Part shown: piece by piece, positions 2,454 to 39,246 of the stretch
Layout of the letters: each line of letters opens with the position of its first letter
Numbering within the stretch: the stretch's first letter is position 1
Assembly: GCF_054482525.1 (NCBI RefSeq)
Contig: NZ_JBTHVG010000004.1
Source: a plasmid
DNA: 64,000 bases
Direction: 5' to 3' (one strand)
The notes under the pieces: model-generated
Seen by the model: only the letters and a program-made list of their open reading frames with translations
What the model was told of the DNA's origin: nothing
Database searches by the model: none
Position numbers and translations under genes: made by a program

Positions 2454-2914
2454 ACCAGGCATGTATATTTTACGCAGGGACATGCCGGTCATGATCGTTT
2501 CGTTCCAGGGGTGGTCTGGAGATCATGCGGTGTGCTCCCTGCTCTCGCCGGAATAAGGACGTCGCCGCCGGCTCCGCTTTTACCCGGCCATGCGGGGCAT
2601 GGCCTTGTGGGTTTTCAGTTATGTGGCCTCAGCGTCGTGTGCGGGCTGTGCCGTGCCTCCATCGTAGCCGGGCTTCTGCGGGCGGGTTGCAAGGTAAGGT
2701 GAACCGCTGCGGTCACCCGGTCCCTCCTTCCCGTCCGCCGTGATTTTCCGGTCGTTCACCCGCTCAGATTTCGCGGTCTCACCCTCCAACTCCCGCCAGC
2801 CGTGTGCGTCAGGCTGCGGCTTCCCTTGCGCCCTTGCAACCCTGCAGGCCCGGCAAAGATGGAGGCACGGCACCGCCCGGTGTCGCAGAACATGTGACTA
2901 TGGAGGATTCGGGA

Positions 2915-3415
2915 ATGTCTGTTGTTGCACCTGCTGTATACGTTGGAACCTGGCACAAATACAACTGTGGAAGCATCGCCGGACGCTGGTTTGACCTGAC
3001 CACGTTTGATGATGAGCGCGACTTTTTCGCCGCCTGCCGTGCTCTTCACCAGGATGAAGCCGATCCTGAACTGATGTTTCAGGATTATGAGGGATTCCCG
3101 GGGAATATGGCCTCTGAATGCCATATCAACTGGGCCTGGGTTGAAGGCTTCCGCCAGGCACGGGATGAAGGCTGCGAAGAGGCTTATCGTCTCTGGGTGG
3201 AGGATACCGGTGAGACGGATTTTGACACCTTCCGCGATGCCTGGTGGGGCGAGGCTGACAGTGAGGAGGCTTTTGCGGTTGAGTTCGCCAGTGATACCGG
3301 CCTGCTGGCTGACGTGCCGGAGACGGTGGCGCTCTATTTTGACTATGAGGCGTATGCGCGGGATTTATTCCTGGACTCCTTCACCTTTATTGACGGTCAT
3401 GTGTTCCGTCGGTGA
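2915..3415 (+). CDS. ardA: ArdA antirestriction protein (type I restriction inhibitor, DNA mimic)
   Basis: 166 aa from the internal ATG at 2915 (MSVVAPAVYVGTWHKYNCGSIAGRWFDLTTFDDERDFF...), matching ArdA length and acidic composition; the longer 2804 start runs into a GC-rich leader. Confidence 0.9.
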   Translation: MSVVAPAVYVGTWHKYNCGSIAGRWFDLTTFDDERDFFAACRALHQDEADPELMFQDYEGFPGNMASECHINWAWVEGFRQARDEGCEEAYRLWVEDTGETDFDTFRDAWWGEADSEEAFAVEFASDTGLLADVPETVALYFDYEAYARDLFLDSFTFIDGHVFRR

Positions 3416-35442: not shown

Positions 35443-38400
35443 TCATCGGCCGGGGCTGTGGGAGAGATCCTGATGCAGAGTTTTTTCCTGCCTGTCCTCC
35501 GGCTTTTGGCTGTTGGACCACTGCTGCCATGACTGCTCGAAGCCCAGGTTCCGGTACAACGCATCAGGTTGTTTTTCCGGCGTGTAGACAGCAGCAAAAA
35601 GCGGTTCTTCCCGGGTTTTCAGATGAAACTGCATAAGCTCCGGTGCAGGGCGATTCGTGCTGTCAGCATCGTGGTTTACCGCTTCACCATAACCTGCAAA
35701 GCGTAAACCTTTGTCGGTCAGCGCATTGATAACCAGCTGACTGTTGTCGGCTGATGGGGTGGCCAGTGCCGGATACAATGTGCCGTTCAGCCGGACCACA
35801 CCCTGCAGATGTTCATCGGCACTCTGGACAAGTAGCAGGTTGAGTTCACGCGTATCCTTATCCACTGATCCCAGAACAGGTGTCAGCTTGTCAGGGGCTG
35901 CGCTGGTTATTTCTGTTACCTGATTTGCGTTCTGTGGCGCGGAGACCGGATGTCGGTCTTCACCGATAAACAGATGTGAGCCGACGTTTTCTGGCATACG
36001 TAACGCTTTCATCTCTTCGGGCCACCCCTGGCTGATTTGCGCAGCCACTTTCATAAAGGTTTCGACCGGAATCGCCTGAATACGCTGACCTTTATCCGGA
36101 TTATCATGTGATACCGAGATCCCGTTGGTAACTGACTCCATGGACCACTTATTCCGGAAACGTGCTTTTTGCTCTCCCGGGAGGATGAATTGTTCGCGGT
36201 TCTGAAGTGTCAGTGTCACCACGTCACCTTTCTGATGGTTTTTGACCAGACTTTCCAGTTGTTCCCCCCAGTAGAGTTTGCTGCCACTGCGGTTTTTAAG
36301 CTCAACAAAGAAACTCTCTCCTTTGCCGGGTGCATATTCAGCACGACCAAAATTGTGCAGTACGGCAGTCACGCTCTCTCCCGGGCGAAGTTTTCCTGGT
36401 GGTTCTTCACCTTGTGCCGCATCTGCCGTTTTGCCAGGTTCAGCCGGTGATGATGCAGGGACGGTGCTGACGGTTGATGCTTCAGGGGCTACTGGGGACG
36501 CCGGGGATTGTGTGGCTTCTTTTTCCTGAACAGGGTCTGGGACTGCTGGTTGTTCAGGGGTATTCCGGTTAAGTTCCGGTGTTGGCTTATGGGTGACAAC
36601 AGTATCCTTACCGACAGCCATTTCCTTGCGTAATTTTTCGAGCGCCGCTCGCTGATCCGGGAATTTCATGCGCACTTTGATGTTGTGCTCGATGATCAAC
36701 TGCATCGCTTTTTGCTTAAAGGCATCACTGCCCGTCAGCTCAATGACACCACCATAAAAATCAGTGGCCACAGCAAGTGCAGCCAGAACACTGCGATCGT
36801 CATTGCTGGCACCGTTGACCATTTCCAGCCGGTTTACCCGGTCAATGAAGGCAGGTTTGCCATCCAGTTTGTACAGGACGGTTCTGTCTGCTCGTTCTTC
36901 ACCTTCCAGCGATTTAATGATTTCGTCCAGATTGAGCGATATCGGTGCATCAGGGCGTTCCGGGGCGTAGACAATACTGTCAGGTGCCGGTGTGGTCGTC
37001 GTGGTTTCCGGTGAGGGTGTGGGATCACTGTTCTCATGCGCCTGGGAATCCGTTTTTTTACGCGTAAAAAAGCCACGCGCTTTGTCGAGAAACGATGAAG
37101 TATTATCAGAAGATGATGTGCTCTGAACAGGTTGCTGTGGAGTGGGGTCATCCCGGACAGCCGGTTCTACTGTATCTGTTGTGGCCTGAAGTTCTGACTC
37201 ATCAGCCTGAACGTGGCCTGTGTCCGGTTGCGACGGCATATCACTGTTTTCCTGCAGATGCTCAGGATTTTCATTGTTCATCAGCTCCTGATATGTGCTG
37301 TAGTTTTCGTATTCTTCGGGGCCATCTGACTCAGGAAGGAACGGCTCTGGCTGAAGGGGAATGTCTTCAGTTACATGGTTGACCGCCTCTTCCCGGGGAG
37401 TATCCGGGGATATTCCGGTGCTTTGTTTGTCATCAGGCTCCGTCATCACGGTCATTTCCTCTTTGACTGCATCAGGGGAAGGTGATGGCTCGGCTGATTC
37501 ATTCATGGTTTCAGATGAGGGACTGTCTTCAGGGGATGCGGTGGTGGCAGCAGGGGCCGGTATTTCAGGTGAAGTGCCGGATTCCTGTTGTGACTCGTTT
37601 TTTTCCGGTTGTGACAGTTCAGCTTCAAATTCACGCCAGTCTTTATCTGTGGCCACCGAGACAACTTTTTCCGGAGGTTCCGCCGGATGAGCGGGTTCAT
37701 CAGGGGCAGACGCCGTTGTACTTTCCGGGGACGCCAGTGATTCTGCAGGGGAGTCCTGAACTACAGAGCTTTCCGTTTGCGCCTGAACGTTATCAGCGTG
37801 CCGCTCATCTTTGCCGTTATTTTCAGTGGCGTGACTGGTAAATGACTGTGTTTCATCAGCAATGTTACTGCTGGAAGCAGCTGGTTGTTCCTGCTGCGTG
37901 GCGGACGGCAGAGAAGGTCCCTGGTCATGGCTGTGCCCTGTATCGGGTGATGTTTCAGGATATTCTGTCGGAGTCATGGTTTTTTCCTCAGTGTGGACCG
38001 GTGTAAAAACGAGGTTGCCTATCACCAGTGCCTCGCGCATTTCCGGGGTGTTACTGTTGGGGGTGGAAACCCCGATGTGTTCTAACTGGGCGTTGATGAC
38101 ATGCTGAAAAGCGGCCCGTCCCCGGCTTGCGTCCAGGTCATTGAAATCGGTCAGCCCCTGCGCTTTTTCGGCATCGGTGAACGCAGGAAAGATGACCGAT
38201 CCTCCTGTCAGTTCTGCGGCTTTTGTTGCACTGACGATACCTTTGTTAACCCGGATTGCATGATCGTTGTCGGCACAGAAGATAAAGGGGCTTTGCGTCC
38301 ACTTTTGCCGGGCATTTTCGGCAACGGCAATCATGTTGCCTCCATCCACCGTCATCAGTACCGGAAGGCCCGTGGCTTCGTGCAGGGAGGCCGCAGTGGC

Positions 38401-39246
38401 ATAGCCCTCGGCAAACAGTACCGGCTGACCGTTGCGCGGTGTGCCCAGCGCAAACCAGTTACCGGTTTTCTCCGAATCTATCAGGATGCGGGCATCTTTC
38501 CCCCCGGTGACCGGAATACGCTGGTAAGAGCGTATCGCGCCGTTACGGTTACTGAAGGGAATAACCAGTTCATTTTTGTTGTTTACCCGCACCCCCGGTG
38601 CAGCCTGAATGCCTTTCCGGGTCAGGTATTCATGTGCTGTGGCCTGCGGCCATTTGTTGATATAGCGGCGGGCATACGCGGCCTGTCGGTTGTACTGTGC
38701 TTTCAGTTCCCGCTCCGCGTCCTCCCTGCGTTGCATTGAATGCGCTTTCAGGTGGAGTCTTGCGCGGGGATCTGTCTGTTCTCCGCCGGAGAAGGTCCAG
38801 GTGATCGGCGAATTATCCGCGCTGCGATAATCCCTGTACCAGCCGGCAGGTCTGCCGTCCAGGAATCCGCGATATGCGCCACTTTTTTGTCCTTTTTTGT
38901 CATCGGCGGTCGGGACACGGTGGATTTTCCCGTCCATGACCGGCAGTTCTTTCAGAACCAGTCCGGCATTCTCCAGAACCTGGGCAAACTCGGTGACCGG
39001 ATCACTGCCGTTCATGGAGACGTCCTGTGGCCGGGGCAGCCAGCGGTCCAGCCTGGACAGGTCCGCCCCCGGGCGGGCGAACCAGAGTTTGTGCTCCTTG
39101 TCCCAGATGACGGGCGTGTGCCCGTTCATCGGGGGATGTGCTTTTTTGAGATCTTCTATTTCATCTGCAGGCACGGCAAGCCAGGTGCGGTAGCGGGATA
39201 CAGACGGCATGAGTGCTTCTCCTGAAAAAAGACGGAAAAAAACCAC
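35443..39246 (-). CDS. sogL: SogL DNA primase (SogS expected from an internal in-frame start)
   Basis: 1267 aa; N-terminal primase region, long acidic Pro/Ser/Thr/Glu-rich linker, C-terminal domain; matches IncI1 Sog. Confidence 0.85.
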   Translation of the reverse strand: MVFFRLFSGEALMPSVSRYRTWLAVPADEIEDLKKAHPPMNGHTPVIWDKEHKLWFARPGADLSRLDRWLPRPQDVSMNGSDPVTEFAQVLENAGLVLKELPVMDGKIHRVPTADDKKGQKSGAYRGFLDGRPAGWYRDYRSADNSPITWTFSGGEQTDPRARLHLKAHSMQRREDAERELKAQYNRQAAYARRYINKWPQATAHEYLTRKGIQAAPGVRVNNKNELVIPFSNRNGAIRSYQRIPVTGGKDARILIDSEKTGNWFALGTPRNGQPVLFAEGYATAASLHEATGLPVLMTVDGGNMIAVAENARQKWTQSPFIFCADNDHAIRVNKGIVSATKAAELTGGSVIFPAFTDAEKAQGLTDFNDLDASRGRAAFQHVINAQLEHIGVSTPNSNTPEMREALVIGNLVFTPVHTEEKTMTPTEYPETSPDTGHSHDQGPSLPSATQQEQPAASSSNIADETQSFTSHATENNGKDERHADNVQAQTESSVVQDSPAESLASPESTTASAPDEPAHPAEPPEKVVSVATDKDWREFEAELSQPEKNESQQESGTSPEIPAPAATTASPEDSPSSETMNESAEPSPSPDAVKEEMTVMTEPDDKQSTGISPDTPREEAVNHVTEDIPLQPEPFLPESDGPEEYENYSTYQELMNNENPEHLQENSDMPSQPDTGHVQADESELQATTDTVEPAVRDDPTPQQPVQSTSSSDNTSSFLDKARGFFTRKKTDSQAHENSDPTPSPETTTTTPAPDSIVYAPERPDAPISLNLDEIIKSLEGEERADRTVLYKLDGKPAFIDRVNRLEMVNGASNDDRSVLAALAVATDFYGGVIELTGSDAFKQKAMQLIIEHNIKVRMKFPDQRAALEKLRKEMAVGKDTVVTHKPTPELNRNTPEQPAVPDPVQEKEATQSPASPVAPEASTVSTVPASSPAEPGKTADAAQGEEPPGKLRPGESVTAVLHNFGRAEYAPGKGESFFVELKNRSGSKLYWGEQLESLVKNHQKGDVVTLTLQNREQFILPGEQKARFRNKWSMESVTNGISVSHDNPDKGQRIQAIPVETFMKVAAQISQGWPEEMKALRMPENVGSHLFIGEDRHPVSAPQNANQVTEITSAAPDKLTPVLGSVDKDTRELNLLLVQSADEHLQGVVRLNGTLYPALATPSADNSQLVINALTDKGLRFAGYGEAVNHDADSTNRPAPELMQFHLKTREEPLFAAVYTPEKQPDALYRNLGFEQSWQQWSNSQKPEDRQEKTLHQDLSHSPGR

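Follow-up and report, generated by a model that had tools for sequence, protein, structure and literature searches.

The stretch of plasmid DNA analysed here (the window; 64,000 nucleotides of contig NZ_JBTHVG010000004.1, assembly GCF_054482525.1) carries on its minus strand the sog gene of an IncI1-type transfer region, which encodes the primase SogL and its shorter form SogS. The gene occupies a single open reading frame (ORF) at 35443-39246, in which the coding sequence spans 35446..39210, with the stop codon at 35443-35445, as judged from the ORF and from the RefSeq coding sequence of plasmid pN55391, which is 100% identical. All parts of SogL described below are encoded on the minus strand, and residues are numbered on the 1255-residue protein that starts at the RefSeq ATG at 39210, so that residue i begins at nucleotide 39210-3(i-1). 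The protein has 99.68% identity to ColIb-P9 Sog over 1255 aligned residues, with all four differences falling in the disordered region considered below, and 97.05% identity to R64 Sog (37 differences). Its neighbours, based on the ORFs of the window and the annotation of pN55391 and ColIb-P9, are traJ, traK and a phospholipase-D gene in the nuc position on one side and traL-traO on the other. These similarities, together with an EGYATA motif in the primase head, bear out the assignment of the ORF to SogL in the original prediction, a note that had been made from the letters of the DNA alone. The same note had described the interval 36400-37900 (aa 437-937) as a single linker between the primase and C-terminal domains. 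Pfam searches, charge-hydropathy analysis and an AlphaFold2 model all divide it otherwise: the interval is composed of most of a long intrinsically disordered region (IDR1), a folded LPD7 domain and a second, short disordered region (IDR2).

SogL has a five-part plan. The primase head (38056..39210, aa 1-385), assigned by Pfam match, motif and composition, is basic, with an isoelectric point (pI) of 9.3. It contains matches to DUF5710 (aa 8-59) and Toprim_3 (aa 266-365), the latter with an E-value of 6e-5 and a score of 23.9 bits, slightly below the Pfam cut-off of 27.2 bits. The EGYATA motif, a signature of such primases, is at aa 268-273. IDR1 (36946..37986, aa ~409-755) is polyanionic and rich in Pro, Ser, Thr and Glu, and was delimited by charge-hydropathy analysis, by composition and by the per-residue confidence (predicted local distance difference test, pLDDT) of the structural model. 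It is followed by the folded alpha/beta domain LPD7 (36604..36933, aa 760-869), which matches PF18821 over aa 776-861 (residues 788-873 of the ORF) with an E-value of 4.4e-14 and a score of 52.7 bits against a cut-off of 27. IDR2 (36397..36603, aa 870-938), defined by composition and a pLDDT of <50, is a Pro-rich and mildly acidic second linker (19% Pro, net charge -5), less acidic than IDR1. The last part is a beta-rich, OB-fold-like C-terminal domain (CTD; 35479..36393, aa 940-1244). IDR1 therefore reaches 90-140 nt past the upper edge of the interval that had been flagged, and the lower third of that interval holds LPD7, a folded domain also present in homologues, which accounts for ~110 of its 501 residues, or about a fifth.

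The AlphaFold2 model, which covers aa 360-1255 and was based on a 53-sequence alignment, has pLDDT values of <50 for aa 392-755 (nt 36946-38037), 92-97 for aa 760-869, <50 for aa 869-938 and 80-96 for aa 940-1244. LPD7 modelled alone gave the same confident alpha/beta fold (pLDDT >90). No solved fold matching the LPD7 model was found, and comparison of SogS with solved structures by sequence gave no match at E <= 1. Among the NCBIfam models, only that of a MobP relaxase gave a match, between LPD7 and its C-terminal end; with an E-value of 0.004 and 16 bits this match is below the cut-off of 250 and was not relied on. The top fold matches of the CTD are OB proteins that bind single-stranded DNA (ssDNA), namely RPA70, POT1, SSB and LEF-3, and on these grounds we make a weak OB assignment. 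An OB-like CTD would agree with the older idea that Sog coats the transferred strand, without proving it.

The CTD also has a relative outside the primases. Residues 947-1231 of Sog (35518-36372, minus strand) are 45% identical (E=4e-68) to the C-terminal ~260 residues of a 719-residue MOBQ relaxase of the MobA/MobL type, which is encoded (L020:965-3124) by mobilisable plasmids of ~4 kb assigned to rep_cluster_1778. This level of identity indicates that the exported primase and the relaxase of a small plasmid have a module in common, which may be a module for docking to the I-type type IV secretion system (T4SS) or for binding ssDNA.

The acidic, Pro/Ser/Thr/Glu-rich (PSTE) bias that had been noted for this part of SogL is pronounced. 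Between aa 386 and 757, 49% of the residues are P, S, T or E (13% Glu and 8% Asp in IDR1), and 76 acidic residues against 18 basic ones give a net charge of -58 and a pI of 4.06, whereas the folded parts of SogL contain 18-26% PSTE and are about neutral. In 40-residue sliding windows across aa ~400-760, PSTE content is 40-65%, with 6-11 acidic residues, 0-5 basic residues and 5-28% hydrophobic residues. When the residues of SogL were shuffled 5000 times, no shuffle matched the observed charge minimum (-58), PSTE maximum (0.50) or hydrophobicity minimum (0.13), each being the extreme within a 340-residue window, and among the long reading frames of the window the SogL segment is the most acidic and the richest in PSTE. 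The description of the region as low-complexity was only partly borne out, as its complexity is moderately low (Shannon entropy of 3.1-3.7 bits) and it is free of repeats. Tandem Repeats Finder detected no tandem DNA repeats in the linker, its sole array being one of 20 nt at 38882-38901 in the primase part, and tandem or simple repeats were thereby ruled out as the source of the bias.

The predicted disorder of the acidic region was upheld by three proxies. In addition to its composition and its pLDDT of <50, IDR1 is disorder-like throughout aa 409-747 by charge-hydropathy analysis, with a mean hydropathy of 0.375 against a boundary of 0.469. By the same analysis aa 866-945 lie on the disordered side (IDR2; 0.400 against 0.436), while the primase, LPD7 (aa 758-865) and the CTD are on the folded side. 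We therefore predict that IDR1 is intrinsically disordered.

The position of the internal start of SogS bears directly on the role of IDR1. SogL (1255 aa) and SogS (844 aa), the latter produced by internal translation, are both transferred to the recipient and have been proposed to coat the transferred strand (PMC6112013). We predict that SogS begins at M412, whose ATG (37975..37977) is preceded by a GAGGA Shine-Dalgarno sequence; no other start codon close to the border between the primase and IDR1 has a good one. The 844 residues from M412 equal the reported length of SogS (PMC6112013), and the position matches the annotation of SogS in pESBL (PMC4288162). The calculated masses of SogL and SogS are 137.8 and 92.2 kDa, respectively, and their apparent sizes are reportedly ~210 and ~160 kDa, a difference that would fit anomalous migration of two isoforms that both contain an acidic disordered region. 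This start lies just outside the flagged interval, at the point where the disorder-like stretch begins; consequently, IDR1 is a linker in SogL and an N-terminal tail in SogS. An equivalent Met, in the context FTPV-x6-M, is present at the primase/IDR1 border in 98 of 168 full-length homologues, and a Met with a Shine-Dalgarno-like sequence occurs at the equivalent border in Leclercia, Pantoea, K. aerogenes and IncL loci. These positions agree with the putative 689-residue short form of the 1070-residue Pri protein of pCTX-M3 (PMC6112013). Between the primase and the SogS start there is a hydrophobic strip, REALVIGNLVFTPV (37996..38037, aa 392-405), which is conserved in the IncI-gamma, IncK and IncZ homologues and in a Salmonella sequence group. 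It has low pLDDT in a model that omits the primase domain, and so may pack onto the primase.

The architecture of SogL is conserved well beyond the IncI1 plasmids. Nine diverged homologues from plasmids with an MPF_I-type (IncI-like) transfer system, including IncI-gamma/K1, IncK2/Z, Leclercia, Pantoea and Serratia plasmids, an IncFII plasmid of K. aerogenes, the IncL pOXA-48 type and pRHB39, all keep the order primase-IDR1-LPD7-IDR2-CTD. Their IDR1 is 186-448 residues long and, in eight of the nine, has a net charge per residue of -0.14 to -0.18. The primase, LPD7 and CTD were all detected in 145 database proteins, in which IDR1 is 81-590 aa long and always has a negative charge per residue (-0.04 to -0.19, median -0.137), and IDR2 is 44-163 aa long with a net charge that is never positive. 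The sequence of IDR1, in contrast, is essentially unalignable outside close kin, even though the flanking domains retain 38-76% identity. In comparison with the IncK/Z proteins, for instance, IDR1 aligns only over its first ~38 and last ~20-50 residues, while the primase, LPD7 and CTD are 75%, 76% and 63% identical, respectively. Most of the matches obtained from 1.84 billion representatives started at LPD7. The ratio of nonsynonymous to synonymous substitution rates (dN/dS) is 0.31 for IDR1 and 0.36 for IDR2, compared to 0.13, 0.18 and 0.05 for the primase, LPD7 and CTD, which shows that selection on IDR1 is purifying but relaxed.

Linker length, for which a comparison among IncI plasmids had been suggested, varies widely across the 145 homologues but is fixed within IncI1. 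A single-codon indel was the only length difference among nine IncI1 sog genes, the DNA of IDR1 was covered to at least 80% in one piece in 1327 of 1340 plasmid records, and among the matches listed its span was nearly always 1041 or 1038 nt. We considered whether IDR1 is hypervariable within IncI1 and rejected this, as its length is fixed and variable amino acid columns are about as frequent in it (8.6%) as in the primase (7.3%), with only dN/dS raised. Rare singleton IncI1 variants do have in-frame deletions in IDR1, of 112 aa in P0003 (~aa 621-732) and 168 aa in P0004 (~aa 568-735), in both of which two of the three motifs described below (B and C) are lost. Another singleton, P0001, has an in-frame deletion of 50 aa inside the Toprim domain.

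Within IDR1 there are three short islands of conserved sequence. Motif A, KDWREFEAEL (37615..37644, aa 523-532), is acidic and aromatic and is predicted to form a short helix, AlphaFold giving a low-confidence helix at aa 526-532; its pattern, [DEKS][DE]WxxF[AE][EA][ED]L, was found in 94 of the 168 full-length homologues despite flanks that do not align. Motif B, YENYSTYQEL (37282..37311, aa 634-643), also aromatic and acidic, has related forms (YDDFSAYEEM, YEDYRAYQEM) in 23 of the 168, and its position relative to motif A varies. Motif C, FLDKARGFF (37066..37092, aa 707-715), is the only basic, amphipathic patch of IDR1, where the local net charge becomes positive; its pattern is present in 105 of the 168, and a short low-confidence helix was modelled at aa 708-712. 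All three islands persist across the IncI1, IncI-gamma, IncK and IncZ proteins and a Salmonella sequence group and, judged from these patterns, they look like short linear binding motifs.

We favour the reading, which in our estimate has an even chance of being correct, that IDR1 is a non-folding polyanionic spacer or tail that is selected for its composition and carries embedded binding motifs. Selection would act on the bulk properties of IDR1, i.e., its strong negative charge, low hydrophobicity and abundance of Pro, Ser, Thr and Glu, and not on its sequence, so as to maintain a spacer that repels itself and does not fold. In SogL such a spacer would flexibly tether the basic primase head to the body formed by LPD7 and the OB-like CTD. 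In SogS it would be a long acidic N-terminal tail, which might keep the abundantly exported protein soluble and extended, free of unwanted association with nucleic acids or with itself. The motif islands would be docking sites for partners, and IDR2 would be a conventional Pro-rich hinge from LPD7 to the CTD.

Several observations weigh against this role. The folded partners of IDR1 are not basic (net charge of -1 for LPD7 and -6 for the CTD), and for this reason a shielding benefit is unproven. The fixed length of IDR1 within IncI1 and its dN/dS of 0.31 suggest more constraint than a passive spacer needs, while P0003 and P0004, if they are not assembly errors, show that much of IDR1 can be lost in a sequenced plasmid. 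Finally, transposon sequencing of pESBL gave the SogS-coding span a value of 1.00 for requirement in transfer, compared to 0.74 for the whole of SogL (PMC4288162), but these data cannot separate IDR1 from LPD7 and the CTD because insertions in IDR1 also remove both domains.

Of the other explanations that we considered, the one that survives best, although we think it unlikely, is that IDR1 acts in cis as a DNA mimic or autoinhibitor by folding onto nucleic-acid-binding surfaces of the OB-like CTD, LPD7 or the primase head. IDR1 would block premature binding of ssDNA and self-association in the donor, and would be displaced by ssDNA in the recipient. The models for such a role are the acidic tails of E. 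coli SSB, T7 gp2.5 and T4 gp32 and the acidic chaperone VirE1 on VirE2, the last not being covalently joined; these proteins handle ssDNA and are exported or act early, and by analogy Sog would likewise pair an acidic disordered segment with an OB-like fold. The ssDNA-binding OB proteins among the best fold matches of the CTD point in this direction, subject to the weakness of the OB assignment, as do the basic primase head, the family-wide conservation of negative charge density without conservation of sequence, and the proposal that Sog coats the transferred strand (PMC6112013). However, the CTD and LPD7 are themselves net negative, and the acidic segment of Sog is ~350 residues long and N-terminal to the OB-like domain, whereas SSB-type proteins have a short tip at the C-terminus. 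Sog has no short acidic tip at its C-terminus, where the tail LHQDLSHSPGR is not acidic.

A somewhat less probable explanation is that the disordered segments have little function of their own and are tolerated as filler where modules meet, and that they persist mainly because they allow the primase, LPD7 and CTD modules to recombine or be swapped and because they house the internal start. The evolution of sog offers several points in favour of this. The gene is a recombination mosaic, with divergent blocks at aa ~661-960 and aa 1-330 whose breakpoints are inside or next to IDR1, and synonymous divergence (dS) is 0.33 for LPD7 compared to ~0.02 for the CTD and, depending on the plasmid, 0.007 or 0.19 for the primase. 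In the chimera P0131 the breakpoint falls exactly at the SogS start: up to aa 400 its primase head is IncI1-like (90-98% identity), and the body that follows is foreign (14-50%). Sequences of the same LPD7 identity class differ by large in-frame indels, the length of IDR1 being 247-450 aa, the IDR1 of IncL proteins is built of 15-residue tandem repeats, and P0003 and P0004 are natural deletion variants. On the other hand, mere filler would not be expected to have a negative net charge in 145 of 145 homologues, a dN/dS of 0.31, which is far below 1, conserved motif islands or essentially no variation in length among the IncI1 plasmid records examined.

We consider it more doubtful still that IDR1 is an export signal or handle, i.e., that this extended, Glu-rich region is captured by the I-type coupling complex through TrbA, the homologue of DotM, with its many acidic stretches giving high-copy export of Sog independently of DNA. 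DotM binds the acidic, Glu-rich tails of Legionella effectors in an extended form, and TrbA has been listed as a homologue (PMC5802825). Consistent with this, R64 TrbA (L002:13501-14709) has the C-terminal cytoplasmic domain of DotM (PF23127, E=1.6e-49) and matches DotM structures by sequence, IDR1 has the Glu and Asp content noted above, and Sog is exported without DNA in hundreds of copies (PMC8406263). Yet when we looked in the alignment for the arginines with which DotM binds acidic peptides, only an equivalent of R314 was visible in TrbA, a poor conservation that was also found in PMC5802825, and as only this residue is visibly retained the involvement of TrbA stays speculative. Known E-block signals are acidic, Glu-rich motifs in the C-terminal ~30 residues (PMC5802825), but IDR1 occupies an internal position in SogL and an N-terminal one in SogS, and in both forms ~500 residues follow it. 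As a candidate for docking the CTD is preferable, since it is 45% identical to the MOBQ relaxase C-terminus, is the most constrained part of the protein (dN/dS of 0.05) and precedes a conserved charged tail. A broader form of this idea, that IDR1 is an active export and anti-aggregation device, in which an unfolded, Glu-rich handle of ~350 residues is captured by TrbA and/or acts in cis as VirE1 does, seems to us just as improbable, but if it were true it would explain the DNA-free export of hundreds of Sog molecules per mating, and the islands DWxxFxEEL, YxxYxxYQEL and FLDKARGFF would be specific docking points.

Comparison with known systems places SogL among the Sog-type primases. It has the same gene, position and internal start (844 aa) as SogL/SogS of ColIb-P9 and R64, from which nothing of substance differs. 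The statement in the original prediction that Sog is transported into the recipient agrees with reports (PMC8406263 and PMC6112013, citing Wilkins & Thomas 2000) that several hundred copies of ColIb-P9 Sog are delivered independently of DNA; the acidic linker may, as was suggested there, matter for this transport. The IncL/M Pri proteins (pCTX-M3, pOXA-48) and the IncI-gamma, IncK and IncZ primases share the five-part plan and an acidic IDR1 of -0.14 to -0.18 charges per residue. Their IDR1 is 263 aa (IncL) or 437-450 aa (IncI-gamma, IncK and IncZ) compared to ~372 aa in the SogL described here, and can be aligned to that of SogL only at its edges and motif islands. In addition, the linker of the IncL pOXA-48-type Pri (L011:1992-5429) contains tandem repeats of ~15 residues (VASAPAADEPxExAx), whereas the IncI1 linker is repeat-free.

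More distant parallels are found in other proteins that enter the recipient. The polyvalent proteins of conjugative elements and phages (Iyer et al. 2017) are multidomain proteins delivered with or ahead of the DNA, as is Sog, whose LPD7 is above the Pfam cut-off; SogL is cited in that study as an early-acting transferred protein, although the name LPD7 has no occurrence in its text (PMC5512222). The primase of plasmid RP4, TraC1/TraC2, also resembles Sog in being transferred to recipients, but the domain order of TraC1 is inverted relative to Sog, with Toprim at the C-terminus and an ArdC-like DUF1738 domain at the N-terminus (PMC7213743). In tblastn searches this resemblance was confined to the Toprim region, the matching records being annotated as zincin-like metallopeptidase proteins. 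As with Sog, there are two in-frame isoforms of the RP4 protein, TraC1 and TraC2.

SogL is well known, the plasmid family that carries it is abundant and acidic disordered linkers are a familiar kind of feature, so that our results are modest refinements that leave current understanding unchanged. They comprise the domain map, the placement of the SogS start at the edge of IDR1, the conservation of charge instead of sequence, three candidate motifs and the link of the CTD to MOBQ relaxases. Sog is of interest as one of few natural proteins exported in large numbers by a dedicated conjugation system, and IncI1 plasmids are major carriers of extended-spectrum beta-lactamase (ESBL) and other resistance genes. 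The sog DNA of the window is 100% identical in pESI-like megaplasmids of Salmonella Infantis and is found at 95-100% identity in >1300 IncI1-type plasmids. The domain map can guide the choice of pieces to delete or swap when the export signal and the transfer-essential part of SogS are sought.

The relaxed constraint on IDR1 has a practical counterpart in plasmid typing. What we take to be the sogS primers of the IncI1 plasmid multilocus sequence typing (pMLST) scheme each match the window exactly once, and delimit an amplicon (36958..37248) that encodes aa 655-751 of IDR1. The sogS locus of this scheme is 254 bp (PMC2887853). IncI1 sog alleles are set apart by the divergent block at aa ~661-960, which appears to be recombinant and at whose start the amplicon lies. 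It is this position, in the relaxed IDR1 and at the edge of the block, that makes the locus informative.

On the plus strand, five ORFs (83-119 aa) that overlap the region were examined as possible antisense genes, but were rejected: two gain stop codons in plasmids of 96-98% identity and all accumulate many amino acid changes, and we treat them as by-products of codon composition. Elsewhere in the window, the second most acidic reading frame (2804-3415, plus strand) resembles, by eye only, the antirestriction DNA mimic ArdA (MSVVAPAVYVGTWHKYNCGSIAGRWFDL...).

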